Shown here one piece after another: positions 1 through 55,442 of a stretch of DNA of 64,000 nucleotides. Where the stretch lies: positions 17,298,001 to 17,362,000 of the forward strand of contig JBHGNT010000004.1 of the NCBI GenBank assembly GCA_043228905.1, given 5' to 3'. Every line of letters begins with the position of its first letter. Within the stretch, counting starts at the first letter, position 1. The notes under the pieces are model-generated. The model had not been told where the DNA came from and did no database searches. It saw only the letters and a list, made by a program, of their open reading frames with translations. The DNA is from Azolla caroliniana (taxonomy: Eukaryota > Plantae > Polypodiophyta). The position numbers and the translations under genes were made by a program.

Positions 1-1368
1 ATCCAAGAAATTTATGGATAGTGATGAAAATTAATTTTTTCACCCGTCTGTATAATGTCATTTAGCATGCAGAAGAGGCAAAGACACGAGAGAGATTATA
101 TATAATCACTATTTTCTTGCATTGCAAAATGTAAAGGGGATTTTGATTTCTTCTTTATGTACTGATTGGTGTTTATTCTACTCCATAAAATTGTCAGAGT
201 GTTAAAATATCTGCCCCTCCCTTCTAAGGCCCAATAAAACAAACGTAAAGCGTTGTTTTCTTCTCCGGAATCAACAAAACTACAAACAACAAGGTTTGGG
301 GAGGAAAGAATGGATAGCTCCCATTGGAACCTTGTTGAGAAGGCGCAAACGGAGGGGTGGGTGGGTAAGCACTCCATACATACTCTGTAATGCTCCTTAA
401 AAGAACACTTGGAGCTATTGAGCTAGACAAGCATACCATTCGAAGGTAGGCATTACGATCACCTACTATGCACGTTTACTTGTGAGATTTGAAGTTGGCA
501 TTTGAAACTAGATAGACCACGTAGGTACATTGCACCCAATGAAAAGATACAAAAATGTGCATCCTCACGTTGTGACATGTAGTGATCATGGCCATTTGAC
601 AAAGCTCACCCTCACTTGCCTTATTTATAGACTAGGACCACTACCATTTTGACAAATCCATCTTTTTAGTCATGCTAATGTGTTCTCTATGAGACATGCA
701 TAGTATTGACCATACACCAATAGGAGACACTTGCAATTCTCCTTTTTTGGGAGAAGGATGTGACTAATGATTAAGCAAATGGACGTACAATCAAAGGAAA
801 GAAATGGATTAAGGGCACTTTTTCTCCATAGATGGGTTTTCGAAGTCGACATACGTGATTTGGGAATTGAACACTTTCAAAGTAGGGTGGTTGTTGCATG
901 TAGAATTATTCATTGATTTCACCATGTAAAAATGCCATTTGAACGTCTAAATGATGAAGTTCAAGGTTTAATGATGCAACAAGTCCCACGAGCATACGAA
1001 ACGACTTTATCTTTAGAGTGGGGCTAAAAGTAACTTTGAACTCAATTCCAGGTACTTGCAAGAATCCTCTTGCAACGAGTCAAGCTTTATAATGGAAAGG
1101 CTTGCAAAGAGAATCTCATTTAACTCAGAGTACCCACTTACACGTGACTATCTTCCGGTGTCGTGATGTGGCGTGCTCGAGAGTGGGAAAAACCAGCGAA
1201 AGGGGGGGGGGGGGGGTAAAAATGTGCAAAATAAAAGGGAAAAGAAAGGGTGGAAAGGATGCATAGAAGCCCGTGCAAAAAGTAAGAGAGAAGAGAGATA
1301 AAATGTAGAGGAGAGACGAGCTAAGAATTTATAGAGATAGAATTATATATTACATAAGAGAGAGTTAG

Positions 1369-1422
1369 TGGGCTAGTGGATAGTCACATTGACTACTAAC
1401 TAGAGGTGTATGGTTCCAATCT
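1369..1422 (+). promoter_or_regulatory. tRNA-like Pol III A-box/B-box module in G1 LTR (second copy 8397-8450)
   Basis: A-box TGGGCTAGTGG with a 4-bp D-stem (GGCT/AGTC), variable-loop-like AGGT, B-box GGTTCCAATC (3' copy GGTTCAAACC), at tRNA spacing. Confidence 0.55.
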
Positions 1423-1990
1423 AGTCTTATAGTGTAACGTGATTTAAGGAATTTTATTCCTTTTTTAGTGAAGACAAAATTGGTGACCCCCTTTCTTTTT
1501 TTCCTATAAAAGGAGGTCGAGGGGGGCTCATTCGGGAGGACGTTTTGGGAGGAGGAGACTATCGCCATTTTTCCTTCGGAGCTCTTCATATTCTTCTTCA
1601 CCACTTCTCTTCATCTCATACCCCTTCATCCCCTTATCACCACGTGCTCGTCTTCTTCGCGTCGGCACTCGAAGTGCTCGTGAGCCCAAGCTTCGTTGGT
1701 TCGACGTTGCTTCACCCCGTTCGTCGTTGTGAGCCCGTGTGCTCGCCGTTCGGGTGGTCGTGGTTCGTTGGGGTTGGCATTTTAGTGGTGCTCATGTTTT
1801 CATCTTCGTCGTGGTCGGTTTTGCTCTTGTCCCTAAGGGCATTTAGTATTTATGTTTGATTAAGCCGGTGGTTAGCTAGAAGTTGCTATTGTACTCAAAC
1901 CCTATTTATAAAGGGGCCTCTTGTGTTGGAATCAAACATGTATTTACTCCTTTGGACGATATCATTCGTGTTTGTGTTATCGTCCCCTTG

Positions 1991-2374
1991 GGTTCATAGA
2001 GAGGATTCATAGAGAGAGTTCGTAGAGTGGGTTCGAAGAGAGGATTCGTAGAGAGAGTTCGTAGAGTGTGTTCGAAGAGAGAATTCGTAGAGTGGGTTCG
2101 TAGAGTGGATTCGTAGAGAGAGTTCGTAGAGTGAAGATTCGTAGAGTGAGGATTCATAGAGTAAAGATTCGTAGAGTGTTCCAAGAGAGGATTCGTAGAG
2201 TGGGTTTGTAGAGAGGATTCGTAGAGTGAAGATTCGTAGAGAGAGTTTGTAGAGAGAGTTCGTAGAGTGAGGATTCGTAGAGTGAGGATTCGTAGAGTGA
2301 AGATTCGTAGAGTGAGGATTCGTAAAGTGAAGATTCGTAGAGTGAGGATTTGTAGAGTGAAGATTCGTAGAGTG
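1991..2374. repeat. Minisatellite of 13/15-bp units (GATTCGTAGAGTGAR / GTTCGTAGAGAGA) in G1 5' LTR
   Basis: Directly visible tandem array; homologous array at 18130-18578. Confidence 0.95.
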
Positions 2375-2498
2375 CTTTATATTTATAAGATTTAAAATAA
2401 ATAAATAAATAAATATTTATCCCTTGAGTACTCCCTAGTCCAAGACCCCCGTGGTCTCGCCCAAGTAACACACGCGCGCGAAACTTCGCGACATAAAT

Positions 2499-2516
2499 TG
2501 GTGAACCCAACGTGAA
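2499..2516 (+). promoter_or_regulatory. Primer-binding site complementary to tRNA-Trp
   Basis: TGGTGAACCCAACGTGAA versus the reverse complement of the plant tRNA-Trp(CCA) 3' end as recalled (TGGTGAACCCGACGTGAA), 1 mismatch. Confidence 0.85.
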
Positions 2517-2538
2517 AGGGTAGCAAGGGAGAACCAAG

Positions 2539-4680
2539 ATGCAAGGAGGAGAACTCGCTGAAACGAAGGTGGCGGCGGTGGACTACTCGGTAAATGCCCG
2601 AGAAGGCATCACCGTCCTAGAGCAGGCCATAGAGACGATGGTCAGCACAACGGGTCGGTTTAATGGAAGAGATATCGCGAGCTACTTGGATGCCTATAAG
2701 GCCGAAATGCTTATGCGAAACGTCCTCGAAGATAGGCGGCTAACCGGATTCGCTAGAGTGCTAACGCCGAGTATCCACGTAGAAGTATTCGAGATCCAAG
2801 CGGATTGTTGCAATTGGGTGGAGTTCGAAGAAAGACTCCTCGAGAAGTACGACGTTGATGACTCACTCAGAATTTCGAAAAGGGATCTAATGGACTGGTT
2901 TGAGCTTCCCAGCAAGGGGAGAAATACTATGCTACTTTTACAAGAATTTGAGAAGCGCTTCGGGCGACTCTCGGTTCTCGATAGGATGGTGCTTGACACA
3001 AGCAAGGTCCTACTATTCATAAGGACTGTTGATGCACGAGACCGAGAGAAGGTGGGGTCCCTCCTTGAAACTGATGATGGGCTCACGACGGATTGGGCTA
3101 TGGTAAAACGGGTTTGTAGCCACTTCGATAAGAGAAGGGAATGGAATGACGGGTCTCCATTGAGCGGCCAAACATCCACAGGCTCCATTAGTGAGACACA
3201 CGAACCCAGGGGTGGTAGAATACCTCAAGATAGAGAGCAAGCAAATGCAAGGTTCGTCCCTGAGAGAAACGTGGTTGAAGCACCGTCGGGAGGGTTGGAA
3301 ATAGACGAGCTCACAAAGATGGTGCGAGATCTCCAAATAGCGCAAGCTAGGAGAGAGAGTGGGGGCCCTCAAGATCAACGTCCCCTGTTCACGCAAAGAT
3401 GTATGTGGTGCGACAACCCCGACCACCTACAAAGGGAGTGTGGAAACTTTCAAGAGGCCCTAAGAAAGGATATTGTTTATCTTTGGAACAATAGGGTCTA
3501 TTCGACGGAGACAAGGAGCCCCTTGGGATTGAATCAAGGCCAAGGGGGCATGAGAAGGCTAATGGAGGAGGCCGGAGCATGACATGTTGAAGCCATCCAC
3601 TACTCGGCATCGGCTGGGATCCGAGTGGGGAAAGAGGTGAGGAGGCAAGAGGAGAAAGAGTTTGACTTTTGGCCGTCAATCCTTGGAAGCCTCTCTAAGG
3701 GGAAGTTCAAAAGAGAAGAAGCGGAAAGAAGGGTTCAAGAAGCAACCGGATGGAAGGATCTGGTGGAAGAAAAGATAGGCTTAGTGGAAGCCGCTTGCCA
3801 AAACTACGAAGTAATGGTAGAAGAGAAGAAGGTAGGAAATGATGAGGGAGCCGGTCCATCAAGGAAATACGACGCTCGAGGTGCACGAAGAAGGGAAGAG
3901 CCAAACCAGTCTCAAGCACACGACAAAATATGGAAAGAGAAGGGGAACCCCCCCAACTTCAAGGTTTGCTCGGAGATCGAACAAGCAACGGACTTGAAGA
4001 AGGTAGTGGAAGAAAGGATCCTCGATAGTCGTGTAGAGTTTACTCTGCAAAAGGTCCTCGGAATTGCCAAGAAAGAATTCCACGAGGTCATCATCGACCT
4101 AATGAAGAGGAAGTAGCTCTCGACGGAGCAAGAAGTGGCAAAGCCCGCGATTGTAAATGCATTGTCAACCGAGATTCCCGAGGAAGACGAAGACTATGCG
4201 GACAGTCACTACACAGGGCTGCATTGGGCGAGAGCGACAACGGAGACACCGGTATGGGTCGGAGATGTAAAAGAGCCGGTTGTAGCATTGATCGACCATG
4301 GCTCTGAGATCAACCTTATGTCCATGGATTTTTATAAAAAGGGAAAGTGGCCGATCAACACGAAGCACGGGTGGAAGATTAGAGCAGCGACCCGAGCAAC
4401 CGAGGAGCTATACGGGGCTCGCCCGAATGTACGTGTGAAGGTGGGGGACGTAGAAATAGATCAACATTTCTTTGTTCAAGAGACGTCCTCACATCCGGTC
4501 ATCTTGGGTGAACCATACATCACGGCGGCTTGCATGGAGACGAAGGTGCTAGACAACGGGCCGGCATATGCGAGGGTCAAGAGCCAAGATGGGAAGCATT
4601 TGGTCCAATTCCTTACGGTGAGGCCCAACCATGAGCACAATCGAGCCTCCCTCAATGGGGAGAGCCAAGAGGATTTTTAA
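2539..4680 (+). pseudogene. G1 gag-protease, with in-frame stops at 3582 and 4116
   Basis: Three same-frame ORFs; zinc knuckle CMWCDNPDHLQREC; aspartic protease motif LIDHGSEIN...VILG. Confidence 0.85.
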
Positions 4681-7600
4681 TTCGGGCTATTAAAGAGTGG
4701 GGTCGCAATAGTTTGAGGCAAACTGAGACCCTAAACCCTTGTAAAACTATTAAATGTAATAGGAAACAGTTATGGTTCTCCGAAAATGGAGCTTGTAAAA
4801 TTACTAGTTTAAGTGATAGAGATAAGTCTAGGGCCAAGAGATACGAAAGGTATCTCAAACAATGTAATTTATTGGGGGAAGATGACACCATATGTGGCGC
4901 CATGGAGGCGGTCTCGTTCGACGACACTCTCAGAGAGATGGAGAGGGTAGTCGTTTCGGGCCTCAATGAAGACAAGGTAATTCCAGTCAACTCAGTTGAC
5001 ATGTACACCGCCATCGAAGAGCTTGGGTGGTTGATTGAGGAAGCAAGGACGGTCAAGGCGCAAACAAAGTACAAGACCGTGGACAAGAAGGTGAAGCCTG
5101 TGGCTGCCCCATTGCCTAACGATAGTTGGGATCGGATAAAGGGGGTTGCGGCTGATCCTAGCTTGCGGGACCCACGAGGCATAGGGCACTGGTTCACCGA
5201 CGAGACGCGACAGAAGCTCCGGATTGGTGGGGGTGGTTTCCTATTGCCTAGGGAGGAGGAAAGATTTAGAAGGATGATCGAAAACCATGGAAGGGCTTTC
5301 GCCTTCTCGTCGGGTGAGATAGGGTGTGTAAACCCTAAGATCATGGAGCCAATGGTGATCTTTATGGTGCTGCATGTACCGTGGAACATCAAGTCAATCC
5401 CGGTTCGAGAGCTCACATCCCGAAGTTGATTGAGCTACTCAAGGAAAAGATCGAGATGGGTATCCTCGAGCCATCAAGCGCCCCATACTCGAATTGGTGG
5501 TTCACTGTGCCAAAGAAGAACGGCACCTTACGCTTCATCCAAGACCTATAACCTGTTAATCAAGTGACAATTCAAAATGCGGGGGTCGGTCCGAGCGTTG
5601 ATGAATTCGCCGAGGCCTTCGCTGGAAGGTCTATTTATTTGATCGGTGATCTAGTGCGAATGTGTACCTTGCCACAAGGAGGCACTAACTCTGTAGCCCA
5701 CATGGTAAATGCAATGAACAAGGTATTGAGAGATTGCATCCCCGACATCACCATGCCGTTCCTCGATGACATCCCCATAAAAGGGTGCTCTGAAACGGAG
5801 AAAGATGAAACCTTGGACGAGGATGGGTGCAGACATTTTGTGGCATATCACATCTCCGATTGCGAGAAGATTCTACAAAGACTCGAAGATGCACGCTTGA
5901 CCTTCTCAGGTGAGAAATCGGCATTCGGCCAACCGGAGATCCTTGTGGTGGGACACTTGTGCGGGGCGTACGGACGGAAGCCGTCCCCGGCAAAGGTGGA
6001 CGCCATCACAGACATGAGGGAAGAATGTAAATCGCAAACAAAGGTGAGGCGATTTCTTGGTGCCTGTGCATTCCACCACATCTGGATCCCGCACTATGCT
6101 CACCTAGCCGAGCCCTTGTATGGGCTACTCAAGAAGGGGCGGAAGTTCAAGTGGGAGGAAGAGCATACCGAGGCAATGAAGAGGCTCAAAGGAATGTTGG
6201 TAGCGGCACCAACTTTACGAAAAGCCGTATACAAGGAAGGGGTGCCCATCTACGTGACGGTAGATATGAGTCCAACTGGGATCGGATGGGTCATAAACCA
6301 AGAAGGAGAGGATGGTACACGCTACGCCATCCGGTTCGGAGCCAAGGTCTTAAGTGAGCGACAACGAGGATACGCCCAAGTAAAACGTGAGCTTTGGGGA
6401 ATTGTGTCCGCATTAAAGGCGGATAAAGATTACCTAATCTGGTCAGAGGTGGTAATAGAGACGGATTGCCTTCCAATCCTAGGGATAGTTTCAGGATGTG
6501 CAACACCTGACCTAGCTATGCTAAGGTGGATTGCTTACATCAAATCGATGAACTCGGAGATTCACCACATTTCAGGGAAATATAATGCCATGGCAGATAT
6601 GCTATCGAAGGCAAGATTTGAGGGCGAATGCGACATGGTGTCTGAAGATGAGGATGTCGCACTTGACTTCTTTATGATGCCAAACGTCTATAGATGATCG
6701 AGATGTACGAGTACTCCATGCCTTCAATGAAAGTGAATACGAAGGGGAGTGGCTACACATTGGCAAGTTCTTAAGCTCAATGATAGTGGATAGTTCATGG
6801 TCGAAGCAGGAAGCACAGAGAGTCCGAAAGAAAGCATACAAGTACTTCCTATGAGGGGGATTCCTCTGGAGGCACCCGAAGAGAAGGACGGGGACACCAC
6901 AACGAGTGGTGATAAAGGAGGAAGACCAGACAACATTGGTGTCTGAGTTCCACGAGAGTCCTTGGGCGGGCCATAGAGGAACGTGGGCAACATTTGAGAA
7001 GTTAAAGGAGAAGTATTGGTGGCCGGGAATGTACAAGAATGTCACCCATTTCGTGGGGATGTGTGAAAGCTACTAGATACACTCCAACATACGCCATAGG
7101 GACGAGTTGCACTCGACCTACCCACTCACCATACACTTCAAATGGATGGTGGATTTGGTTTCGATGCCAATGGGAGTGGGCCAAATGAAATATTTGGTGC
7201 TAGCAAGAGAAGACCTAACAAACCAAGTAGAAGGGTGAGCCTTAGCAAACAAAACGACAGTGGGGGTGTGTAAATTCTTACTCGAGGATGTCATCTGCCG
7301 GTACGGATGTGTGGGAAAGATAGTGGCCGACAGAGGAGAGCTGAACGCTCATGAAGCTACAGAGCTCTTTGACCGACTTGGAGTGAAGCTCTCTCTCACG
7401 ACCGCTTATAACTTGGAGGCTAATGGAAGGATAGAACGTGGACATGGGCCTATCGTAAAACCCATTGTAAGAGCTTGTGATGGGCGAGTTGGGAATTGGC
7501 CTCGGTTACTACCTTATGCCTTGTGGGCCGACAGAACAACTCATAGCTCAGTTACAGGTTTCATGCCAGCTGAACTCATGTACGGACAAAAGCCGGTGAT

Positions 7601-8088
7601 GCCTATTGAAGACATGGGTAGCGATGCCGTGGGAAAACGAGATGAGTCGAGAAGAGCTTCTAGCCACAAGGATAAGGTAACTTGAGAGAAGACTCCAAGA
7701 CTTGGAGTTGGCAAAGGAGAGGTTAGAAGCGGCTAGGCTAAGTAACAAAGCCCGATTCGACAAGACACACCAACTACGCCCTCGGAAAATTGAAGAAGGA
7801 GACGGGGTGATTGTTTATGATAGTAGTCTCGACAATCAACATAGCTCGATGCGGAAATTCGCAAAGCGATGGTTCGGGCCGTACGTGGTGACGAGTGCAA
7901 ATGATAATGCTACCTACCACCTCTCTGAACTTGATGGGACTAAGTTGGCAGTACCAATAGCAGGGAAGCGGGTCAAAATCTTCAAAAAGCGACATGATAG
8001 GGAGCCAAACCTCGATGACCTTGACGAAGATAAAGACGAGCAAACAACAAGTCACGGGGTCAATGAGGAGGAGGAAATGAACTATTGA
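4681..8088 (+). pseudogene. G1 pol (RT-RNase H-integrase), with frameshifts, stops and an internal RT deletion
   Basis: LPQGGTNS and FLDD RT motifs; RNase H VVIETDC and NAMADMLS; integrase IVADRG...NGRIER and WFGPY; no chromodomain seen. Confidence 0.88.
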
Positions 8089-8572
8089 CCACCCTCGGCC
8101 CGCCATTCTTGGCACATACTGGAGGATGTGCGGTTTGGTGGGGGTGGATGTCGTGATGTGGCGTGCTCGAGGGTGGGAAAAACCCGGTGAAAGGTGGGGG
8201 GTCAAAAATGTACATGTGCAATGTGTGCACACAAAGCGATTAGTTGTGCATATGCAAAATAAAAGGGAAAAGAAAGGGTGGAAAGGATGCATAGAAGCCC
8301 GTGCAAAAAGTAAGAGAGAAGAGAGATAAAATGTAGAGGAGAGACAAGCTAAGAATTTATAGAGATAGAATTATATATTGCATAAGAGGGAGTTAGTGGG
8401 CCAGTGGATAGTCATGTTGACTACTAGCTAGAGGTCCATGGTTCAAACCTAGTCTTATAGTGCAACGTTGTCGTAGTGTATTTTGTACACTACGTGAAAA
8501 ACTTATAAAGTATCGATTTAATAAATATGAATAAATAGTAGAAAATATCAAAATGTATATAACATGCATAGG

Positions 8573-8629
8573 GCAAGATTCAAACCTTGCACCTCCATGT
8601 TAATAATATAATGTCTTACCATTACACTA
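8573..8629 (-). promoter_or_regulatory. tRNA-like A-box/B-box module in G2 LTR, antisense (copies ~11409-11465 and ~20722-20778)
   Basis: Minus strand reads TAGTGTAATGGTAAGAC...GGAGGTGCAAGGTTTGAATCTTGC. Confidence 0.55.
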
Positions 8630-9276
8630 GCATTTCATTAGTGTTTAAAAATAGATGTTCCACATAGAAAGGTAAGTTCACGCTAGGATAAACTTTAGAA
8701 AAACACATAATAAAAGAAAAAGCTACACATGCCCATGTAGCGTGCATGAACACTATAGTCAATAAAAAAAATGCACAAGTTAGGAAAAGCATGATCACTT
8801 TAGATAAAGCATATAGTCTATCTATAGAAAAAGCATGGAGTCTATAGTTAGAGAAAACGCATGGGTTGCAAAAGACTCTCTCATCTCTATATAAGGATGA
8901 GGAGCACAATGTAATAGGTGTGTGAAATATTTGAAAATTGGATATATTTCCGAAAACACCAACCGATTAATATAATTGTGGGATTCACGAAAATAATATA
9001 ATCTATACTTGTGGGATTCACAAGTTTCTTATATCTTTCTTTCAATCTAAATACATATTCTTATCTAAATATTGATTAATCGAATACAATACACTCGTGG
9101 GATTCACGAAATTTCTATCTCTCTTTCTAATAATCTATTCATCACTAGCCTCATCTCATATTCTTCTTTCTCCTAGTCCAAAACCTCAATGGTTCCCACC
9201 CGGCTCACGCAAACGATCTAACGCTGAAAGGCACGACACATTTGGTGAACTTGACGTGAAGACGGGTGGCAAGGGG

Positions 9277-11190
9277 ATGGAGAATCAACAAGAGGTGATG
9301 AACATGATGATGATGGTTGAGCGGATGCAACAAGAACAACGCGCGATGACGGAGATGAAGGCGGCAGTAGAGCGGCTTGTGCGACGAAATGGGGAATTCA
9401 ACGGAAATGATGTGTCACGCTATCTACGTGACTACAAAGGGGAGATGATGCGATGTGGGATACCGGAAGGATTGCAAGTGATATCCTTTAGTCGGGTAGC
9501 CACGGATGAGTTACAAGAAAGAATCTACAAGATACGGCAACAAAACCCAACATGGGGGTCCTTTGAAGAAGCTTTACGAGAGGCATATGACTACGAGAGA
9601 TCGAAGGGACGAGATCGACGCGAGTTTGACGAATGGGTGGCATCGGAGAAGACCCACCGAAGTGCAACACAAGCATTCCTAGAGTTCGAGCATCATTTTG
9701 CTCGAATCTCGGAGCGGGAACAAAGATTGGTGGGGGAGGATAAAGTCCTAATGTTCGTAAAATCGATCGATCGAAAAGAAAGGAAGGACATTGGGATTGA
9801 ACTCGAAGACGATGACGGTACGAATGGTCTTACCGAAGATTGGGCCGAAGTCCAAAGGGTATGCCGGAGACATGATGAGAGGAAGATGAGAATCTTGTCA
9901 ACGACATGGCCGATGAAGGATGGTCGATTGAAGACAAACGATGGAGCCGATATGAAGGCCGAAATACAACATGATGGTGCGACGGAAGAGGGTGTAAAAC
10001 AAGCTACCCTCTTGTCTTGCGAAAGAACAATGACGAAGGATAAGGACGATAACCCAAGTGTAGAAGAAGATTTCAGAATACAAGTGTCCGAAATATCGGG
10101 TGAAAAAGAGGTAAGCATAATTGATGCAGTGAAAGAGAGCAAGGAGGACTTGATTGAGGAGGTCGCCACGAAAGATGACATCGAATCAAAGGTGGCTATG
10201 GACAAATCAACGACGGATGGCCATATCGAGACTTCCCCACCACTGATTCCAGAGACTCCGGCGGTTGCGTTCGAAAGGCAACGTGAGACCGAAGAGACGG
10301 AAGGTGGCGGAGAGACATTAAAGGTCGAAGCCGATGCGTATGATGGAGAGATAGCCGAGAATATGGCTATGGGTGAAACAACGGAGGATGATAATACCAA
10401 GGATTCCTACCCACTAATTCTAGAGACTTCGGCGGTTGTGTCCGAGAACCAACGTGAGATTGGAGAGACGGGAGGTGGCAACAAGGAAGGTAAAGTCGGA
10501 AGCCGGTTCGGATGGAAGATGATCCGTCTGAAATTCCGATGTAAACAAAAGCACGACAACGCGAAGGTCGGGTCTACGATGGGAGAAGCATGTAATACGG
10601 AGCACGTGCTACGGCACCAAAAGAAGCACGTGCTACGGCGTAAAGAGAAGCACACACTACGGCGCAAAAAGAAGCACGCGCTATGGTGCAAAAAGAAGCA
10701 TGCACTACGGGGTAATACGACGCATGCACTACGATGGAATACGAAGCATGCGCTACGGCCTAATACGACGCATGCGCAACATCGAGAAATAAAGCATGCA
10801 TTAAAGCTGCACAAGGACCTAATAGCGAGCGCGTATTCGGAGGTCGACATCGACGCGTGGGTAGAACCTACGGAAGACAAGCGCGGAGTGGAGAGAGACA
10901 ACACACCGAGATGCTCAAGAGTACCACAAGGGACCATGACAACCACTCATGGCAATGCAAAGAATGAACGAAGATTATGGTGGATCGGATGGCGACAATG
11001 GTTCGGGTGGAAAGAAGGGATGTGCTCAAAATGGAGAGACAAAGCTGACATAGCAAGAGAAACGAAGGGTACAACAAGTAATGAAGAATTACGAGGTCTG
11101 GTAACCGGAGACCGGATAGAGCCGGCAACTGAACTGAACCGGAAACCGGGCGGAGTCGGCAACCAAAAACCGGAGACCGAACGGGGCTGA
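9277..11190 (+). CDS. Gag-like protein (637 aa) with an acidic region and a basic 8-aa HALR repeat
   Basis: ATG just after the PBS. GEFNGNDVSRYLRDYKGEM and KVLMFVKSID...GLTEDW align with G1 Gag (GRFNGRDIASYLDAYKAEM; KVLLFIRTVD...GLTTDW). No internal stops. Confidence 0.8.
   Translation: MENQQEVMNMMMMVERMQQEQRAMTEMKAAVERLVRRNGEFNGNDVSRYLRDYKGEMMRCGIPEGLQVISFSRVATDELQERIYKIRQQNPTWGSFEEALREAYDYERSKGRDRREFDEWVASEKTHRSATQAFLEFEHHFARISEREQRLVGEDKVLMFVKSIDRKERKDIGIELEDDDGTNGLTEDWAEVQRVCRRHDERKMRILSTTWPMKDGRLKTNDGADMKAEIQHDGATEEGVKQATLLSCERTMTKDKDDNPSVEEDFRIQVSEISGEKEVSIIDAVKESKEDLIEEVATKDDIESKVAMDKSTTDGHIETSPPLIPETPAVAFERQRETEETEGGGETLKVEADAYDGEIAENMAMGETTEDDNTKDSYPLILETSAVVSENQREIGETGGGNKEGKVGSRFGWKMIRLKFRCKQKHDNAKVGSTMGEACNTEHVLRHQKKHVLRRKEKHTLRRKKKHALWCKKKHALRGNTTHALRWNTKHALRPNTTHAQHREIKHALKLHKDLIASAYSEVDIDAWVEPTEDKRGVERDNTPRCSRVPQGTMTTTHGNAKNERRLWWIGWRQWFGWKEGMCSKWRDKADIARETKGTTSNEELRGLVTGDRIEPATELNRKPGGVGNQKPETERG
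10603..10810 (+). repeat. 9 x 24-bp coding tandem repeat (H[AVT]LRxxxK/T)
   Basis: His codons at 10603, 10627, ... 10795, period 24 bp. Confidence 0.9.
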
Positions 11191-12623
11191 CAACCAAAAA
11201 TGACCGGTGACGAAACCAACCATGCGGAGAACGGACGGACGAGACTAACAATCACCGACAATTTCGGCACATACCGGAGGATGTGCGGGTTCGGAGGGGG
11301 CGAGTGTCGTAGTGTATTTTGTACACTACGTGAAAAACTTATAAAGTACCGATTTAATAAATATGAATAAATAGTAGAAAATATTAAAATGTATATAACA
11401 TGCATAGGGCAAGATTCAAACCTTGCACCTCCATGTTAATAATGTAATGTCTTACCATTACACTAGCATTTCATTAGTGTTCAAAAATAGATGTTCCACA
11501 TAGAAAGGTAAGTTCACGCTAGGATAAACTTTAGAAAAACGCATAATAAAAGAAAAAGCTACACATGCCCATGTAGCGTGCATGAACACTATAGTCAATA
11601 AAAAAAAATGCACAAGTTAGAAAAAGCATGATCACTTTAGATAAAGCATATAGTCTATCTATAGAAAAAGCATGGAGTCTATAGTTAGAGAAAACGCATG
11701 GGTTGCAAAAGACTCTCTCATCTCTATATAAGGATGAGGAGCACAATGTAATAGGTGTGTGAAATATTTGGAAATTGGATATATTTCCGAAAACACCAAC
11801 CGATTAATATAATTGTGGGATTCACGAAAATAATATAATCTATACTTGTGGGATTCACAAGTTTCTTATATCTTTCTTTCAATCTAAATACATATTCTTA
11901 TCTAAATATTGATTAATCGAATACAATACACTCGTGGGATTCACGAAATTTCTATCTCTCTTTCTAATAATCTATTCATTACTAGCCTCATCTCCTATTC
12001 TTCTTTCTCCTAGTCCAAAACCTCAATGGTTCCCACCCGGCTCACACAAACGATCTGACGCCGAAAGGCACGACAACGTGATTTAAGGAATTTTATTCCT
12101 TTTTCATTGAAGACAAAATTGGCGATACCCCTTCTTTTTTTCCTATAAAAGGAGGTCGAGGGGGGCTCATTCGGGAGGACGTTTTTGGAGGAGGAGACTA
12201 TCGCTATTTTTCCTTAGGAGCTCTTCATCTTCTTCTTCACCACTTCTCTTCATCTCATACCCCTTCATCCCCTCATCACCATGTGCTCATCTTCTTCGCG
12301 TCGGTACTTGAAGTGCTTGTGAGCCCAAGCTTCGTTGATTTGACGTGGCTTCGCTCCATTCGTCGTTGCGAGCCCATGTGCTCGCCGTTTGGGTGGTCGT
12401 GGTTCGTTGAGGTTGGCATTTTAGTGGTGCTTGTGTGTTTATCTTCGCCATCTTAAGACTAATGTTGAACCGATTTGGTTCAAAATAATGCCTTGTGCCG
12501 CCTTTTATAGTGTTGTCAGGAGTACTCCTGAAGTTTCTAGAATGTTCTAGAGAACTCTAGAATATACATCAATTTCTTATAATAAAACTTAAATGAAAAT
12601 AATATTTTTCGTATAACAATATA

Positions 12624-12677
12624 TAGTCTAATGGTAAGAGCTCGACCCATGTAGTATAAGGTTATGGGTTCGAGTCT
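12624..12677 (+). promoter_or_regulatory. tRNA-like A-box/B-box module in G3 LTR, antisense to the element (second copy ~17877-17930)
   Basis: TAGTCTAATGGTAAGAG...AAGGTTATGGGTTCGAGTC. Confidence 0.6.
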
Positions 12678-12684
12678 TGCCATA

Positions 12685-15600
12685 TCATGACACTATCCCC
12701 CCTTTAAAACGATGAGTGTCACGAGTCGTTTTGGAGTGAGGACCTAGTTTGTGTGGATATTGACGATGGAAGTCTTCAAGAAGAGTACGAGCATTGATGA
12801 AATTCTCGATTGGTTCCCAAGTACGTTCGTTGGGACTATATCCTAGCCAATCGACTAGATAGTAGAGCTTGTTGCGAACAATCTTGGAATCAAGGATGGC
12901 GGCAACCTCGTACTCCGGTCCATCTTCAAGCTCAATCGGGGGTGGAGGTTGTATAATACGTCCTGGGATGGTGCTCTCGTGATAGGGTTCAAGGAGAGAA
13001 CTACGAAACACCGGATGTATCCGAAGTTGTGGAGGTAGATCGAGACGAAAAGCGACATCTTTAATGTTTTGGATAATACGGAAAGGACCTAATCGCTGAT
13101 AATCCAACTTCTCACATGGGCGAGTAGTCTTGATGTGTCGTCATAGCAGCCACACCCGATCTCCAATGTTAAAACTGGATGGAAGTCGATGACGATCCGC
13201 GTAGACCTTGTGTGTTTGTTGAGCTTCCTGGAGATGAGTAGATAAATCCGCTTGTATCTTGCGTAACCGCTCCAAACAATCCTCCGCGCAAGGATTTGTG
13301 GACACCTCTGGGGTTTCAAGTACACACCACCGAGGGTGACATCCCGTATAAGCATAAAATAACATAAGTTTAGTCGATGTGTGGATAGAGTTATTATAGG
13401 CAAATTCGGCGAAGTGGAGAATATCTGCCCAGTTATCGTGATGATAGCTGAGAAAGCACCGCAAATACTGCTCCAGCGTTTGATTTGTTCGTTCGGCTTG
13501 GTCGTCGGTTTGTGGGTGGTAGCCGGAGGAGAGGTTACAAGTGACCTTGAGCATTTTAAAAAGGTGCTTCCAGAATTTTGACGGTCGCAGATGAGGTCCA
13601 CGGTCGCAGATGATACTATCGGGAAGTCCATGATGCCAACATACTTCACGCATGACAACTTCGGCGGTGTCTTCACTGGAGATTTCCTTAGTACATGGCA
13701 AGAAATGAGCCATCTTCGTATATCGATCTACCACTGTTAGAATCACATTGAACCCCTTAGAGACTAGAAGATTTGTGATGAAGTCTAGAGCAATGGATTG
13801 CCACAACTTGCTTGGAATTGGTAATGGGTCTAATAAACCATATGGATGATGCCTTGGCATTTTCGCTCTGCAGCATGTATCACAAGTCTGAACAAAATCT
13901 TTGACAAATTGTCGCATACGGGGCCACCAGAATGATCGTTGTACTAAATCTAATGTTTTAGTACTACCAAAATGCCCAGATGTATGTGTCATGACAGTTT
14001 TGTACTACTCGAAGGCGGCAAGAACCATTAGGAACATACAAAAGTTCTTTAAAGAAGAGTAATCCATCATGGTATTTGAATTGCCGATAGTCCGTACCTG
14101 GTGGTTGCGACTGTGAACACGACGCTCGAGAGGGATCAATTTGTGCTAGTATAGCTTGGGCGAAAGCATCTGTCTTCAGGTCCGCACGTATGATATTGAT
14201 AACGTGGGAATCCATGGGCATGCCAAAGACCTGTGTTGCTTGCAGTCGTGCCGGTCCCAAGATTACTTGCTTTTGGTTATCGAAAGCTGGTTTGCCTGGA
14301 CGCGGTGCTAGGTAGGAACGCCGTGATAATGCATCTGCTTTCCCTTGATGCTTCCCAGGTCGATATGTAATCTTGAAATCGAAACGCGTGAGAAAATGGG
14401 CCCACCAAGCTTGATGTCGATTTAACACACGAGTGTCCTGAAAATAGGCGAGGTTTTTGTGGTCACTGAATACAGTGACTTGATGAAAAGATCCCTCTAG
14501 AAAATGCCTCCATTGCTTAAAAGAGTTCACTATAGCCAATAGCCCATTGCTTAAAAGAGTCCACTATAGCCAATAGCTCTTTATCATGAATTTCGTAGTT
14601 GATTTCGGCGGCGTCAAACTTGCGTGAGTGAAAAGCCACAAGATGTAGCTTTTCATCATTACCTCGTTGTGATAGAATGCTCCCCAATGCAAAATCCGAT
14701 GCGTCCGCCTCGATGATGAATGGTTTTTCTGGATCAACGTGAGCTAGAATCGGAGCCAATGTAAATGCCTTTTTAAGATTCTCAAAAGCCATGTCCGCTT
14801 CTTCAGACCAAACGAACGATTGTCCCTTCCTAGTAAGTTGTGTAAGAGGCAAAACGAGCTTTGAGTAATCCTTTATAAACTTCTGGTAAAAATTGGCAAA
14901 GCCTAGAAAGCATTGCACATCCCGCATCAAACGCGGAGTCTACCATTCTACCACTGTTTTGACCTTAGCTGGGTCCATGGAGATGCCTTCTGAGGAAATG
15001 ACATAGCCGAGAAATTCCACCTGGTTGCACCCGAAACTACATTTTTCTAGCTTTGCATAAAGACCATGTTCTCGAAGTCGTTTTAGTACTAACAGTACAT
15101 GACAATCCTGCTCTTCTTAGGTCTTTGAGTAAACCAGTAGATCATCCAAATAGATGACTAGACACACATCCAAGAGATCTCGGAAAATATCATTTGCCAT
15201 GTGTTGGAAGACTACTGGCGTATTAGTGAGGCCGAATGGCATGACTGTATACTCGAAGTGCCCATATCTGGTGCGAAACGCGGTCTTCCATTCATCTCCT
15301 GGTCGGATGTACGAGGTTATAGGCTCCCCGTAAGTCGATCTTCGTGAAGAACCTGGCACCATTGATTCGTTCTAAAAGACTTGAGATAAGGGGGAGTGCA
15401 TACCTATTTCGGTTTGTAACCTTATTCAAGACACGGTAATCTACAACAAGACGAAGTGAGCCATCCTTTTTCTTGACGAAGAAAATGGGTGCGCAGGCTG
15501 GAGATTTCAAATGTCGTATGAAACCATTCTCCAAATTCTCCTCTATATAGGCTCGAAGGACTTCCAGTTCGGTTCGTGACAGATTGTAGATCAGTCCCCA

Positions 15601-16300
15601 TGGTGGCTCTTTCCCTGGTTGTAAATCGATGGGGTAATCATATGGTCGATGGTGAGGAAGTGTATTGGCTTGTACTTTATCAAACACATCGGCATAATGA
15701 CGATACTTCTCTGGAAGTTGAACGGTGGATTCCTCTTTAGTGGTGCTAGAGGGTTTTACTGATATTGCGAAGAGGAACATTTCTTCCTTGCATCCTTCCT
15801 CACGCAACTGATGTAGTGAAATCATTGCAATCTCATGAGTAGACCCTTGGGCTTCTCGATGCTGGATTTCTCTTGTCCGCCAATCTATGTCTAGGTTATG
15901 TAATTCGAACCATGGTAATCCTAAGACAATGGGGTGTTTTGGGATGCTAATTATATTAAATGATATGACACATGCTAGATTATCTAGGGCAATATTAACG
16001 GGCTCTGATTCTTCTATGATATTTCCGAAAGCAATGGGACAACCATCAATGACTACTACAGAAGCAGGACATAGGAGTTTTCTGAGAGATATTTGATGAG
16101 CTTGGGCAAATTTCCTATCCATGAAGCAAGAATTAGCTCCGGAATCTAGAAGTGCTAAGACATGTACTGGAGGGGTACTTTTAGTACTAACTGTTACTTG
16201 GACTACGAACACATTGCTAACTTGCTTAGAGGGAATGGAACCACTAATGGGCTGCATAGATCTAGGGCTGTCCAACCAAACGACTCCTATTTTGGTTGGA
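12685..16300 (-). pseudogene. G3 pol (PR-RT-RH-INT-chromodomain), frameshifted
   Basis: Fragmented ORFs 15292-16275, 15117-15362, 14517-14930, 13964-14539, 13141-13992 and 12685-13107. Confidence 0.9.
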
Positions 16301-16301
16301 C

Positions 16302-17435
16302 TTAGTCGTTTAACTCTTCTTCTAACTGATTAAGGACATCAAATTTGTTCGCTAGATTTGGGCTATTAGTACTATTAGGACTATCAGATATCCCTACTAA
16401 AATAGACTCGGGTTTAGTACAATCAGAACTAGCAACTATTTGGTTTACCTGCCTTCTTGGCCTATGGGGACAGTTTACCGTGATATGCCCTGGTCCATCG
16501 CAATAAAGACATAGTCGGTTTGCTCGGCGTCGTTGCTTTTCTTCTTCCGATAGCGGTCCACAACGATGTGTGGTGTCAATTTCCATCGGAGTTGGAGTAC
16601 TTACTGGAGGCGCATTATATGACTCCCTCAGAAAAGGTTTCGCTACCACTAAGGCGTAGGTAGGCTCTAATCTTGCCCTCGGAATCTGGAATTGTCGTTC
16701 CGAACATCTTTCGAAGAGGCGGTTGTCGCATCTCACCGCGCGACTGATTGCTTCTGTTAATGACTTTGGCTCTTCGGGGAAGGTCAAGAGTAAATCGTTG
16801 ACATCGTTGCGTAAGCCATAACGAAATTGCTCCATCAATGTGTGATCATCCCAAGGGATATCGGCAGCGAGTAGGCGGAAATCTGCAGCATATGCGGAGG
16901 CTGGACGATCACCTTGGCGTAATCGCCGGATTTTGTTGATTGCAGTCCTTATGCTGTTAGTATCTCCAAAACAGGCTTTAAACTCACTTATAAATTCTTC
17001 AAAACTGTTTAGTAATGGAGATTCCTTTTCCAACAATGGAGCAAACCATGCTAACGTTGAGCCACTAAGGAGAGTGCCTACTAGTCCCACTCGTGATGCA
17101 TCGGTGGGATATCGAGAAGGATGCATTTGTATCACTAAACGTACCTGATTCAAAAACCCTCTAAACTGTGATCGGGTCCCATCAAATTTTGCAGGAAGAT
17201 CGATCTTGGGTTCTTTGTGAATCCCTTGAGTGCTTGATCCTTGTTGTAATGATATGATAGTCGCTTCGAGTTGTTGTACACGTAACGCCAGCTCCCCATG
17301 TTGTTTTTCCAACGCTATTTGTTGAAGATCCCCCAACAAACGATGATTTTCTTGTTCTAGTGCTACAAATTTCTCTTTTAAGCATTGGAGCTCTGAGAAA
17401 ATATTTTGGTACTCCTGAGCGCTAACAGTTTCCAT
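16302..17435 (-). CDS. G3 Gag (377 aa)
   Basis: Retrotransposon gag motifs (PAKFDG, LRQG, TPMEID) and zinc knuckle CLYCDGPGHITVNC. Confidence 0.88.
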   Translation of the reverse strand: METVSAQEYQNIFSELQCLKEKFVALEQENHRLLGDLQQIALEKQHGELALRVQQLEATIISLQQGSSTQGIHKEPKIDLPAKFDGTRSQFRGFLNQVRLVIQMHPSRYPTDASRVGLVGTLLSGSTLAWFAPLLEKESPLLNSFEEFISEFKACFGDTNSIRTAINKIRRLRQGDRPASAYAADFRLLAADIPWDDHTLMEQFRYGLRNDVNDLLLTFPEEPKSLTEAISRAVRCDNRLFERCSERQFQIPRARLEPTYALVVAKPFLRESYNAPPVSTPTPMEIDTTHRCGPLSEEEKQRRRANRLCLYCDGPGHITVNCPHRPRRQVNQIVASSDCTKPESILVGISDSPNSTNSPNLANKFDVLNQLEEELND

Positions 17436-18129
17436 TTTACTAGGGAGGATAAGAGGATTAATAAGAAGATAAAAGGAAGAGGAGGAGAGGAAGATACGGA
17501 AAGAAGAACGACCAAAATCGGTTCAAACTGTCAGGAACAGTACTAAGACAAAGAAGGAATTAGTACTAAAAGAAGTATTAGCACTAAGAGAGGTGAAGAA
17601 CTCTCGAGAGAAGGAAAGAGTGAGTGAGAGGGAGGGAGAGAGAGAGAGTGATGATAAGAAAAGATATATATTATGTGAAGAGAATGTACAGTAATAGCTA
17701 GGAGGCTTAAGACTGGCGTTCAACCGATTTGGTTCGAAATAAAGCCTTGTGCCTCCTTTTATAGTGTTGTTAGGAGTACTCCTGAAGTTTCTAGAATGTT
17801 CTAGAGAACTCTAGAATATACATCAATTTCCTATAATAAAACTTAAATGAAAATAATGTATTTTGTATACAATACATAATCTAATGGTAAGAGCTCGACC
17901 CATGTAGTATAAGGTCATGGGTTCGAGTCTTGCTATATCATGACACGCCGTGGTCAGTTTTGCTCTTGTCCCTAAGGGCATTTAGTATTTATGTTTGATT
18001 AAGCCGGTGGTTAGCTAGAAGTTGCTATTGTAATCAAACCTTATTTATAAAGGGGCCTCTTGCGTTGGAATCGAACAGGTATTTACTCCTTTGGCCGATA
18101 TTATTCATGTTTGTGTTATCGTCCCCTTG

Positions 18130-18578
18130 GGTTTGTAGAGAGAGTTCTTAGAGAGAGTTCGTAGAGTGGGTTCGAAGAGAGGATTCGTGGAGAGAGTTCG
18201 TAGAGTGGGTTCGCAGAGAGGATTCGTAGAGAGAGTTCGTAGAGTGAAGATTCGTAGAGTGAGGATTTGTAGAGTGAAGATTCGTAGAGTGTTCGAAGAG
18301 AGGATTCATAGAGTGGGTTCACAGAGAGGATTCGTAGAGTGAAGATTCGTAGAGAGGATTCATAGAGAGAGTTCATAGAGAGAGTTCAAAGAGTGAAGAT
18401 TCGTAGAGAGAGTTCGTAGAGTGAGGATTCGTAGAGTGAGGATTCGTAGAGTGAGGATTTGTAAAGTGAAGATTCGTAGAGTGAAGATTCGTAGAGTGAG
18501 GATTCGATTCGTAGAGTGAAGATTCGTAGAGTGAGGATTCGTAGAGCGAGGATTCGTAGAGTGAAGATTCGTAGAGTG
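18130..18578. repeat. Minisatellite in G1 3' LTR
   Basis: Same units as 1991-2374, with different length and order. Confidence 0.95.
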
Positions 18579-20299
18579 CTTTATATTTATAAGATTTAAA
18601 ATAAATAAATAAATAAATATTTATCCCTTGAGTACTCCCTAGTCCAAGACCTCCGTGGTCCCGCCCAAGTAACACACGCGCGCGAAACTTTGCGACACCG
18701 GTCCTTGGGATTTTCCACAATAATACATGACTCATTCTTTTGGAGACCGTTCATTTCATCTTCCATTGCTTGGTCCCACTTGTCGGCATCGTGTCCATTT
18801 AAAGCGTCTTCAACATTTAGGGGCCATCACAATCGATCGAATCTTCATTGTCAAATAGTTTCAAGACGGTCAGAATAAGTGGGATCAAGATTAGGGAAAT
18901 GAACTTCAAGGTCATCAAGTTCTTCGTAAATATCGGTGACACTTCAATACTTTTTCTGTTTTGTTAATGTGGTTGTCGGGTTATTTTCTGTACACATAAC
19001 GTAGGTGAGGGTAGGTCACTGATATTTACATAAGTGATGTGTATGTTCACTAATGTTAAAAAGGGGACTAATGTGATTGGATAGAAGGAATGATAGGTGC
19101 ATGCAATATCATGATTTGGACAACCAATGAATGGATAGCCTTTTAGAAAGGCACATCTATTCAAGGGGCCTAAGAAGAGGTATAAATACGATGCTTAGCT
19201 ACCCTCATAAGTACATTACGTCTTAGACATTGGTGGTGTGGGCTAGGGTTTCGTCTCGACGATCATTTTATCTCTTCCAAGGTATTAGTCATGCTAATAT
19301 TCGGCGGTATGAGATGTCGGCGGTAGGTTGGTTATGTCTAGATCATAGCTCGGGGGTGGTTGGGTGGAATGGGTTCTTCTTTCCAATCTATTTTCCTTCT
19401 GTTTACTTTATTCTGGTCTATTGATTAGTAATAGACTCTTAACATGTTAGGTGACGTGCTTTTTATAGTTGTGGGTGAGTGTGAAAGGATAGAAGAACTA
19501 CTTCGTGTATTTGAGTGAGAAGGGGGAGATTGGTAATGAGAAGATGAGGAGATGTGGGTAGTTATTTTGATGGGCAAGTGTGAATTAGTAATAGATGTAG
19601 GAATAGGGGTAGGAGTAGAAATAAACAAAGAGGAAAAGTAAAGAATTGTGAAGAAACATGGGAGGGAGAGCGCGCAAAATAGTTTTTCAAATCAACGTGG
19701 AGATGTTGAGGGTTGCTATTTAGTGGAAGATCGTGAGAGATTGGTTAAGCCATGGATGCACACTAGATCCGATTCACGTCGTCTATTCATTCTTCGCAAG
19801 CGTCTGTTGTTGATTGTTGTGACTCCTCAAATCTCTATAGTCCTCTATATAAGGGCTCTACTTGCATCTTTTCGAGGTAATAATTGGAAATATTCCTCTT
19901 TTTCTTATTAGGTTGTAAAGGTTCATTTCTCAATGTAGTGCCCGAGTTTATTTTCAGAGTATCCTATATGAGTGAAAGTTGTAGCATTGATGGGTAATGG
20001 AGCAGATGTTGTAACGGTAGCGTGGGAGCGATTTTGATTTTCTTCTTGGACTGGTGTTGACAAGGTGGGATCTTTTACATGTGGTTTATGTCCATACCAT
20101 AACTCGTATCGTGTCACTAATCCTATTGTTGAGTATGAGGTGCTGAAATGCGATGGCGGATTCCTTGGGCTTGGTATAATTCGTTAAATGCCCTAGAACA
20201 ATATTCACACCCACCATTGGTTTGTAGTTGTTGAATGGATCTTTGTGTCCGGTGACTAGTGGATGTGTGACGTATTTTTTTCTAGTCAACTATAATATT

Positions 20300-21640
20300 C
20301 AGACAAGGCCTTGGGGAGGAAGGCACGAAACAAGAATAAATGATGGGTCGAAGTGCCTTGACCAAGGATATAGGCGGGATGAAGGTGGCACATGCATTAG
20401 ACATGATGGGTTATGCTCATGAGGAGCACAAAATGAACGAAGAATATGGTGGATCGGATGGCGAAAATGGTTCGGGTGGAAGGAATGGACATGCTCAAAA
20501 TGGAAAGACAAAGTCAACATAGCGGGATAAATGGAGGGTACTACGGATGAAGGAGAATAACGAGCTCCGACAACTTCGACACATACCGGAGGATGTGAAG
20601 GTTCGGAGGGGGCGAGTCTCGTAGTGTAATTCGTACACTACGTGAAAAACGTATGGAATGCCCGATTGAATAAGTATAAAGAAATAGGAGAAAATATTAA
20701 AATATATGTTACATGCATAGGACAACATTCAAACCCTATACCTCCATGTTCATAATTTCAACCCTTACCATTGTACTAACACATCAAGTATATTAGAAAA
20801 ATAGATTTTCAATATACAAAAGTTCATCCTTACGCATATTTCCTAGGAAAAAGCTACTCATGCACATCTAGTGTGCGTGAATACTTTTAGAAAAAGCATG
20901 ATAGAAAGAAAGCATAAAGTTTAGAAAAAGCATAAAGTCCATAGTTAGAAAAAGCATGAAGTTAGAAAAAAGCATTAAGTTAGAAAAAGCATGGATTGCT
21001 ATGTGCTAAGCCTCTCCCATCCTTATATTGTATAAGGATGGGAGCAAGATGTATTTGGGAGTGAAAATTTTGAGTGTGATAGATTTTGTAGTAAAAATTC
21101 TTGGGTATTATTAGGGTTTTAAACATAGTACGTAAAATTTGTGTTCATCTAGCATAACGTTCGTTTTCCTATGTTGGAAAACGAATGCGAATGTTATTCA
21201 AACATTCTTGTGTTTTTTTCCCATTTTTTTAATGTTTTTTTCCATTTAAAGCTTATTTACCTCATAATAAATAGTTAATCCAAAAGTATGGTATTTGTCA
21301 TTCTTTGAGAGTGTTTTTCTTACGTGAATGATTGAAACATTCGCGAATGCGAATGCGCGTATGGTTCATAATATGGTTTTAAATATGGATTAATCTAATA
21401 AACTATACTCGTGGGATTCATGAGGTTTTCTATATCTCTCTCTTTCAATCTAAATTCATATTCTTATTTAAATATTGATTAATAAAATACATTATACTCG
21501 TGGGATTCATGAGTTTTCTATCTCTCTCTCTCACAATCTATTCATAACTAGATTTGTTTTAAAATTTTCATTCTCCTAGTCCAGAACCTCGACGGTTTCC
21601 ACCTGACTCACACAATGATCCAGCGCCGAAAGGCATGACA
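20300..21640 (+). mobile_element. 5'-truncated relative of G2: ORF tail + PPT + LTR (20617-21640)
   Basis: ~20430-20616 aligns to the G2 3' internal region; LTR end GAAAGGCATGACA matches G2; repeated TAGAAAAAGCAT motifs at ~20888-20992. Confidence 0.8.
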
Positions 21641-23690: not shown

Positions 23691-24378
23691 ATTGGAAGCC
23701 TCTTGTGGTGAGCTTTTTAATAAAAGTTTACTTTGACCCAATTTCCATATCAAATGAAGAAGTTATTAGGTGGTTCTTCGATCTACATCTTCTTACACTT
23801 TTTATTTGCCTTTTTAAAAAATTCCTTTATATTGTGGTGTGCATGTGTTCCTTTGTGCCACCCTTTTAGCTCACCCTTTTTTAGGATGCACGTACTGAAG
23901 TTGACCCACCCTTTTAGCACACCCCTTTTTAGGATGCGTTTGCTAGTATTCATGCATTTGAATTTCTTGAATCCTCAATATTGACCTTTACTAATTGATT
24001 ATTACAGTTGCTTCTAACTAATCCTGGGTCAATTTATTTTGCCAATGTGTGTACTTATTTATTTGCATGTAAATGTATACATCTGGTGTTAGAATGTCTA
24101 TGTTTGAGTTCACGCATATATCATTATCTGTACAAAAGGGGGGGCATGCACTCATGAAAATGTTGATAATTTGGTACAAGCAACGACATTTGAAATTGTT
24201 GATTGGTGCAGACAACGACTTTGAAGCGCAACAATAGCTGCCAACTATGATTCTGGGTCAACGTTTGATGAAACGTCCCAATTATTGGATAGGCTTCTAC
24301 AATATTATTTTTCCAAAGCTTCCATAACATGTTATATATATTACTCCTTCCAAGAGTTGCCAAAACTAGTGTGAGATA

Positions 24379-50332: not shown

Positions 50333-50369
50333 CCTTCTTTTCGTAAGTGTCCGAAAGTGTCTTCCATAG

Positions 50370-55130: not shown

Positions 55131-55162
<32 letters not shown>

Positions 55163-55442
55163 CAAAGAGACAAAGTGAGCCTCTGTTGTAACCGCCGCCA
55201 TGCGAAGATTGTGAGAACGAGGTCATTGCCTTTGTGCTCCGTGTTGTATTCTCCTTACATAGTGATAGTTGCAGTTTGTGAACTCCCTCAGTTTTTCCCT
55301 CTCAAGGTTTTCCACGTTAACATCTTGTGCATTCTCTTCTGTTTGTGTACTTACTTCCATTTCTCATTTTTTCTGTGTTTGATAATCATTAAGTGATTGA
55401 AGACGCGGTTGTGGCCGAGCACTATTCTGCATATTCTTTTCA
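50370..55442 (+). mobile_element. Ty1/Copia element C-C
   Basis: LTRs 50370-50960 and 54820-55442; TSD CATAG; PBS TGGCATCAAAGC; PPT GAAGGGGGAG; degenerate gag-pol. Confidence 0.93.

Follow-up and report, generated by a model that had tools for sequence, protein, structure and literature searches.

Why would long, protein-coding retrotransposons carry the promoter boxes of a tRNA gene in their long terminal repeats (LTRs)? The question is raised by a 64,000-nt stretch of Azolla caroliniana DNA (contig JBHGNT010000004.1 of assembly GCA_043228905.1, positions 17,298,001 to 17,362,000; the window hereafter), in which three nested Gypsy elements, here called G1, G2 and G3, hold in each LTR a short cassette with the A and B boxes of an RNA polymerase III (Pol III) promoter. 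An earlier model reading of the letters alone (the sequence-only reading) had drawn attention to these cassettes. They lie in U3 above the TATA box, are family-wide, keep their boxes across distant chromovirus lineages and have lost the tRNA cloverleaf. From these traits we favor a reading that is still evenly poised, in which the cassette is a predicted TFIIIC site, derived from a tRNA or a short interspersed element (SINE) and kept next to the RNA polymerase II (Pol II) promoter, where it would act as a barrier or clear nucleosomes.

Cassette coordinates are counted from T8 in tRNA numbering, and each cassette spans T8 to C61. Seven cassettes are present where the sequence-only reading had placed them, with T8 at 1369, 8397, 12624 and 17877 on the plus strand and at 8629, 11465 and 20778 on the minus strand; as it had also claimed, every one of them has AGGT at positions 36-39 and G53 as the 45th base (offset 44), and all lie upstream of the LTR TATA box. 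A few of its box sequences needed small corrections, which are noted here. Both G1 cassettes are in the sense orientation: that of the 5' LTR (1369..1421, plus strand) has the A box TGGGCTAGTGG and a damaged B box, corrected to GGTTCCAATC, with a T4 run about 30 nt past the B box and ahead of the TATA box, and that of the 3' LTR (8397..8449, plus) pairs the corrected A box TGGGCCAGTGG with GGTTCAAACC. The G2 cassettes are antisense to their element (8577..8629 and 11413..11465, both minus). The 5' copy reads TAGTGTAATGG and GGTTTGAATC, a C56T variant of a box that is GTTCRA in 22/30 rows of the G2 family, and the 3' copy carries the same C56T. In G3, both cassettes are again antisense to the element. 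The 3' LTR copy (12624..12676, plus; TAGTCTAATGG and GGTTCGAGTC) scores 28.6 bits and has its B box 16 nt inside the LTR start, and the 5' LTR copy (17877..17929, plus; corrected A box TAATCTAATGG, B box GGTTCGAGTC) points outward and scores 26.1 bits. The seventh cassette (20726..20778, minus), also antisense, sits in a G2-related LTR (20617-21640) and has a decayed B box, GGTTTGAATG.

Scores were obtained with a weight matrix restricted to the A and B boxes and built from 13 class-I tRNAs of the host assembly, some of them probably organellar. By this matrix the seven cassettes take ranks 1-7 in the 64-kb window, and four exceed 22 bits against 0.017 expected from 60 shuffles. The G1 copies (13.9 and 17.4 bits) and the 20778 copy (15.4) are individually within the range of chance and are supported by their families.

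The cassettes are not peculiar to these copies. Among the 30 best loci of each family, selected from 552, 2144 and 5194 first-look candidates and including the window's own copies, the cassette is present in 30/30 for G1, G2 and G3 alike. This rules out a single SINE insertion, one of the cases that the sequence-only reading had named as fatal to its proposal, and no SINE tail was seen in the LTRs. A blind sample of the 523-Mb genome (80 stretches of 10 kb at fixed positions, 800 kb in all) gave 38 matches above 20 bits, where 8 shuffles gave 0.75, and the matches are most numerous at the spacing of a tRNA (38 versus 6, 2, 14, 4 and 1 in five other spacing bands). The matrix ranks against shuffles and this excess together rule out a chance motif. 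By reading their context, 33 of the 38 could be classified: 14 in Tcn1-like LTRs, 11 in LTRs of tRNA-Trp-primed (Trp-type) elements and 8 that belong to a free element or to relatives of it. Extrapolated, this amounts to roughly 25,000 cassettes genome-wide and about 16,000 in LTRs (from 25 per 800 kb).

Prevalence differs among LTR classes when the LTRs are located without use of the cassette. Met-primed LTRs have a cassette of their own in 0/19 cases, the single match belonging to a neighboring chromovirus, and five of six self-primed matches carry one. Among 11 Trp-primed LTRs, three exceed 15 bits, G1 scores 13.9 and one is cut short; the other six are considered below. For G2-type LTR starts, the cassette lies within 330 nt in 26/28 and further in for the other two. 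Tcn1-like LTR starts were anchored on the chromodomain, and 86 rows, drawn as the best matches of three queries plus the blind sample rather than at random, collapsed to 75 distinct starts. Both boxes occur at tRNA spacing in 57/75 (1 in control windows), and an antisense GTTCRANNC B box occurs in 67/75 (4 in control windows). Every Tcn1-like family sampled has a cassette or a B box, antisense, near the LTR start; copies with open frames of 1222 aa carry the cassette, and young copies with 1199-aa frames are included among the 75 starts. The latter belong to family E, in which the B box is found at the LTR tip in 11/12 copies and an A box at tRNA spacing in 0/12, the A box being degenerate and displaced to offset ~52. 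At the family E LTR tip (L284:1377-1443, minus), an 8-bp hairpin holds the B box in its loop. Some Trp-type LTRs (L219:4130-4915, L038:2530-3030 and L032:780-1120) have two or three cassettes each, antisense in U3 and with a sense one downstream of the TATA box beside a CT repeat.

What has been conserved in these cassettes is best seen in five Tcn1-like lineages found blind (A, A2, B, C and D, of which A/A2 and C/D are related pairs). All five keep 13-14 of the 14 canonical box positions. Invariant columns make up 10/14 of the box positions, 0/5 of the free positions inside the boxes, 2/18 of the anticodon arm and 0/20 of the flank; the contrast of box columns with the 43 free, arm and flank columns (2/43 invariant) gives a Fisher p of 1.3e-6, which is overstated because the lineages are not independent. 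The five free positions have an identity of 0.30, as expected of a protein site. Furthermore, synonymous sites are largely saturated, four-fold-site identity being 0.22-0.44 between groups A, B and C/D, whose LTRs align only patchwise. In lineages A and B the LTR interiors are homologous and four-fold sites saturated (0.24), yet 14/14 and 13/14 box positions are kept. A weaker version of the same trend is found in nine G2-type lineages, several of them picked by score (boxes 0.83-0.90 versus arm 0.60-0.74). The Tcn1-like cassette thus appears to be under constraint.

The tRNA fold shows no such retention. Across 21 representatives (the five blind lineages and 16 others, partly picked by score), cloverleaf covariation is absent, with 48.7% of positions paired versus 48.4% after shuffling, and no consensus fold emerges; pairing is 41.5% in the acceptor stem and 31.4% in the anticodon stem. 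No tRNA was found in the window by ARAGORN or by a whole-window Rfam scan. In local scans with the Rfam tRNA model, G3 gave no match, a young G2 copy scored 13.4 bits and a lineage C relative (L212) 25.2 bits (E 0.0015), below the gathering threshold of 29. The ARAGORN and Rfam results, the unpaired acceptor and anticodon stems and the missing covariation rule out a working tRNA gene. Only lineage C keeps a 7/7 acceptor stem, and its cassette at L212:5089-5160 has this perfect 7-bp stem extended to a 12-bp inverted repeat. The claim of the sequence-only reading that the boxes rather than the fold are conserved is therefore borne out across the diverged Tcn1-like lineages.

The same reading had described three families with dissimilar LTRs and had proposed that the module was gained convergently or by exchange. 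Presence throughout all three families was confirmed. The case for three convergent gains is weakened, since G1 and G2 share a tRNA-Trp-type primer-binding site (PBS), NCGN target duplications and 34% identity between the G2 protein and the G1 Gag over 181 aa; by these sequence features they form one clade. Given this relationship, two origins are more likely than three. The motif ahead of the B box also differs, AGGTYATGG being common to Tcn1-type cassettes and AGGTRCA to Trp-type ones, which makes two captures of a tRNA or SINE head the simplest account: probably one in the Tcn1-like clade and one in part of the Phygy-like clade. Mobile donors of such cassettes exist in the genome. A free element of ~200 bp (L198:1586-1786 and 4437-4637; L316-L335), possibly SINE-like, has two convergent tRNA-like heads and sharp ends; most of its insertions, some of them tandem, are in CT or T-rich microsatellites, and there are 2160 first-look candidates. 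One of its heads is identical to lineage C at 64/73 positions.

How could such boxes serve an element? The B box is the main contact of TFIIIC with DNA and can suffice for its binding, and tRNA genes have a nucleosome-poor upstream zone and can block heterochromatin. In the favored reading, TFIIIC would be bound by the B box of the cassette. At the outer edge of the 5' LTR, the outward-pointing cassette would then bring in TFIIIB and a nucleosome-poor zone over the AT-rich stretch toward the Pol II TATA box, the effect falling on this side because the cassette points out of the LTR. Copies would thereby be helped to stay transcribable in chromatin rich in transposable elements (TEs). The family E B box without a spaced A box fits such B-box-centered binding. 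As judged from its arrangement, the cassette cannot make the genomic RNA, because it is antisense in G2 and the Tcn1-like elements and followed in G1 by a T run ahead of the TATA box. TFIIIC sites without Pol III have been reported near heterochromatin borders (PMC6950938). More tentatively, and short of an even chance, an entire clade of autonomous plant chromoviruses may, by domesticating a tRNA promoter, have gained a portable TFIIIC barrier at the outer LTR edge, with a second Gypsy clade doing so independently.

Several observations weigh against a kept TFIIIC site. GTTCRA is found in 29/30 G3 rows, compared with the 22/30 of G2 given above and 16/29 in G1, and 13/29 G1 copies lack an intact B box. 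Moreover, 2/26 scored rows have an intact CpG in the G1 B box, whereas the other CpG sites average 80%; this speaks against a shielding from methylation in G1. The C56T change is in both LTRs of the window's G2, which therefore likely inserted with its box already damaged. Among the blind-found Trp-primed LTRs, six of the 11 are sisters in which no match within the LTR itself exceeds 9 bits. These decayed and missing cassettes weaken the case for function in G1 and G2, and the cassette is accessory: Tcn1-like families retain it strongly, whereas in G1 and G2 it is optional or decaying. Since the free mobile head is so close to lineage C, the cassettes of some lineages may have been captured separately and recently. 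Inside any one family, conservation of the boxes does not significantly exceed that of the remaining LTR (p = 1.0, 0.62 and 0.30, at low power). Finally, conservation extends to positions 44-52, which are not part of the canonical B box (6/9 invariant), and the inner three T-stem pairs are pairable in 19-20 of the 21 rows; because of both, a role at the RNA level may exist.

This last point bears on a first alternative, in which the cassette is a working Pol III promoter and either its short antisense RNA or the transcription itself regulates the element, for instance through small-RNA pathways or damped expression. We regard it as rather unlikely. The exact tRNA spacing of both boxes in 57/75 Tcn1-like starts would suit it, though a B box alone could suffice for TFIIIC, as would the AT-rich DNA upstream, the still pairable inner T-stem and the T4 runs 23 nt past the B box in G2 and 30 nt in G1. 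However, Tcn1-like LTRs have no terminator of their own, and with the first T4 lying 53-118 nt further on, outside the LTR, the RNA would vary from copy to copy; family E lacks a spaced A box, and there is no conserved fold. Conversely, the cassettes might be functionless relics of tRNA-derived SINE heads in ancestral LTRs, their boxes conserved merely as SINEs keep them. The free tRNA-like heads, one of them close to lineage C, favor such an account, and the box decay in G1 and G2, the sister Trp-primed LTRs without a cassette and the variable orientation and number of cassettes among Trp-type LTRs agree with it; a SINE insertion has also been proposed as the origin of Helenus (Kojima 2024, PMC10886601). 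It does not easily explain why lineages A and B retain nearly all their box positions at saturated four-fold divergence, nor why every sampled Tcn1-like family has the antisense cassette or B box near the LTR start, and repeated capture at one place and in one orientation would itself imply selection. We therefore consider it unlikely as a general account, and it more likely suits G1 than G3.

Two further alternatives place the cassette in the replication cycle. As part of the genomic RNA, the antisense cassette could, through a hairpin or its complementarity to a tRNA, help in priming or strand transfer, as in HIV-1 (precedent cited in PMC6468702). The antisense placement would give the element an RNA complementary to the D and T loops of tRNAs, and the family E B box pairs in a hairpin with the LTR tip. 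Yet G3 and its relatives are self-primed, the G1 cassette is sense, positions 59-60 vary freely, and tRNA-Trp, the G1 and G2 primer, is not in the four best cassette matches among 14 host isotypes sampled, which also disposes of a pairing with the primer itself. Such a role is quite improbable. That the cassette is a landing pad, drawing Ty3-like integration to sites a short way upstream of where Pol III starts, is more doubtful still and finds hardly any room: G2 does lie 72 nt downstream of the G1 T8, but 0/171 LTR-host junctions fall 5-30 nt upstream of T8 (the nearest are at 37, 59, 91 and 115 nt), and G1 and G2 insertions follow an NCGN motif. The putative TFIIIC site thus remains the reading that we prefer.

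Comparison with known systems helps to delimit what is found here. The closest is Helenus/TRIMp3, a miniature retrotransposon with terminal repeats (a TRIM) that has a tRNA-like sequence in both LTRs that is conserved around boxes A and B and is unlikely to be a working tRNA (PMC10886601). According to the same source, a piece of a tRNA is present in "not a few" Repbase LTRs, with only TRIMs studied there; Helenus is 311-1263 bp long and non-coding, the template RNA is proposed to come from its promoter, and its autonomous partners must use Pol II. The elements here likewise bear, in each of their two LTRs, sequence derived from a tRNA and containing boxes A and B. Unlike Helenus, which reaches about 1.3 kb, G1, G2 and G3 are 3.6 kb or longer and encode gag or gag-pol, and they have TATA boxes and copies with long open pol frames. 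In addition, their cassette is not placed to make genomic RNA, being antisense in G2 and the Tcn1-like elements and stopped by a T run before R in G1. By size, coding capacity and promoter arrangement they are not Helenus, despite the shared type of cassette. Cassandra in plants, and Ajax, are 5S-bearing TRIMs with a Pol III-type internal promoter in the LTR; in the miniature Cassandra this is a 5S type-1 promoter from which Pol III makes the transposition RNA (both via PMC10886601). The elements described here share a Pol III-type promoter in the LTR but have no 5S promoter, miniature size or Pol III transposition RNA.

Tcn1-like and Phygy-like elements of mosses and club-mosses have been described, with self-priming in Tcn1 and an NCGN preference in Phygy (Neumann 2019, PMC6317226). 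G3 resembles Tcn1 in its chromodomain and self-priming, and G1 and G2 resemble Phygy in their 4-bp NCGN duplications. Passages of that work, of Novikova 2010 (PMC2864245) and of Vendrell-Mir 2020 (PMC7466625) dealing with Tcn1 and Phygy say nothing of a tRNA-like or Pol III element in the LTR, and "polymerase III" occurs 0 times in the main texts of the latter two. Outside retrotransposons, extra-TFIIIC sites and tDNA barriers (PMC6950938) also consist of DNA with A and B boxes or a B box only, for which TFIIIC binding and a place at heterochromatin borders have been proposed; they are host sites with measured occupancy, whereas the cassettes here ride on retrotransposons and their occupancy is predicted. 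A tRNA-Lys3-like sequence at the HIV-1 U3-R corresponds to the primer tRNA and has its role in reverse transcription (cited in PMC6468702). HIV-1 is thus another coding LTR element with a tRNA-gene-like sequence in U3; unlike it, the cassette here is not a best match to the primer and occurs in self-primed elements. No description of such cassettes in autonomous Gypsy or moss LTRs was found in the literature searched, the coverage of which stops short of subscription journals, Repbase entries and the Kojima and Neumann supplements. The yeast ETC/COC loci are extra-TFIIIC sites of the same general kind.

Pol III promoters in LTRs have been described for miniature elements without coding capacity, whose RNA is made from them. 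That long, protein-coding elements keep the boxes in an arrangement unable to make genomic RNA points to a different use. If the domestication of a barrier is true, the approximately 16,000 LTR-borne sites would likely outnumber the tRNA genes, let elements stay active in TE-rich chromatin and shape Pol III factor binding genome-wide. Should TFIIIC bind them, they would provide a plant retrotransposon with a simple cis-acting resistance to silencing and offer a first handle on TFIIIC barrier function in plants. The annotation of tRNA and Pol III loci in such genomes will meet thousands of LTR-borne mimics.

The nest that carries the cassettes spans 1159-18697, with G2 and G3 both inserted in the 3' LTR of G1. 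G1 (1159..18697, plus strand), the host of the other two, is a non-chromovirus Gypsy element with a broken gag-pol, flanked by the target duplication CCGG (1155-1158 and 18698-18701). Its 5' LTR (1159..2493, plus; 1335 nt) has TATAAAA at 1505-1511 and is followed by the tRNA-Trp-type PBS; its 3' LTR, also plus, starts at 8149 and is split by the insertions, and the pair is 93% identical. The U5 of the G1 LTR (1992-2380 and 18118-18580) contains tandem arrays of 13- and 15-nt repeats whose number differs between the two LTRs. G2 (8469..12075, plus) is Gag-only and Trp-primed, with the target duplication ACGT, TATATAA at 8888-8894 and LTRs at 8469-9238 and 11305-12075 (plus) that are 98.4% identical. 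The 4-bp NCGN duplications of G1 and G2 recur in the family tallies, and neither element has a chromodomain match; on these two features they are classed as Phygy-like.

G3 (12452..17945, minus strand) is a chromovirus with gag, reverse transcriptase (RT), RNase H, integrase and, at the integrase C-terminus, a chromodomain (PF00385, E 8e-14). Its PBS is complementary to its own LTR and hence self-priming; from this and the chromodomain it is classed as Tcn1-like. The 5' LTR (17529-17945, minus) has TATAAAA at 17757-17763, and the 3' LTR (12452-12692, minus) is missing ~175 nt at the end of U5, precisely where it joins the G1 LTR in which it inserted (12446-12452). Contigs from runs under three organism labels, one of which may be the window's source, cover the G3 cassette with both boxes. 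Contig cover drops over the lineage B cassette in run X2; these are contig-level data that carry no transcript starts, strand or level. At L203:5190-6064, two lineage B LTRs are joined inverted, directly after the self-priming site.

Elsewhere in the assembly, contigs C5, C8 and C16 hold large tRNA gene arrays of a single isotype, with tRNA-Lys(TTT) recurring at intervals of about 370 bp; a tRNA-Trp 3' end is matched 70 times, mostly in tandem clusters. The remainder of the window contains two Copia elements (43658-55442), neither with a cassette, a 171-nt tandem array of five copies (28420-29403), a DUF659 transposase-like open reading frame (32703-34016) and a separate RT open reading frame (56740-58044). 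Exons of a host gene for an L-gulonolactone oxidase-like FAD protein lie at 24370-26987.

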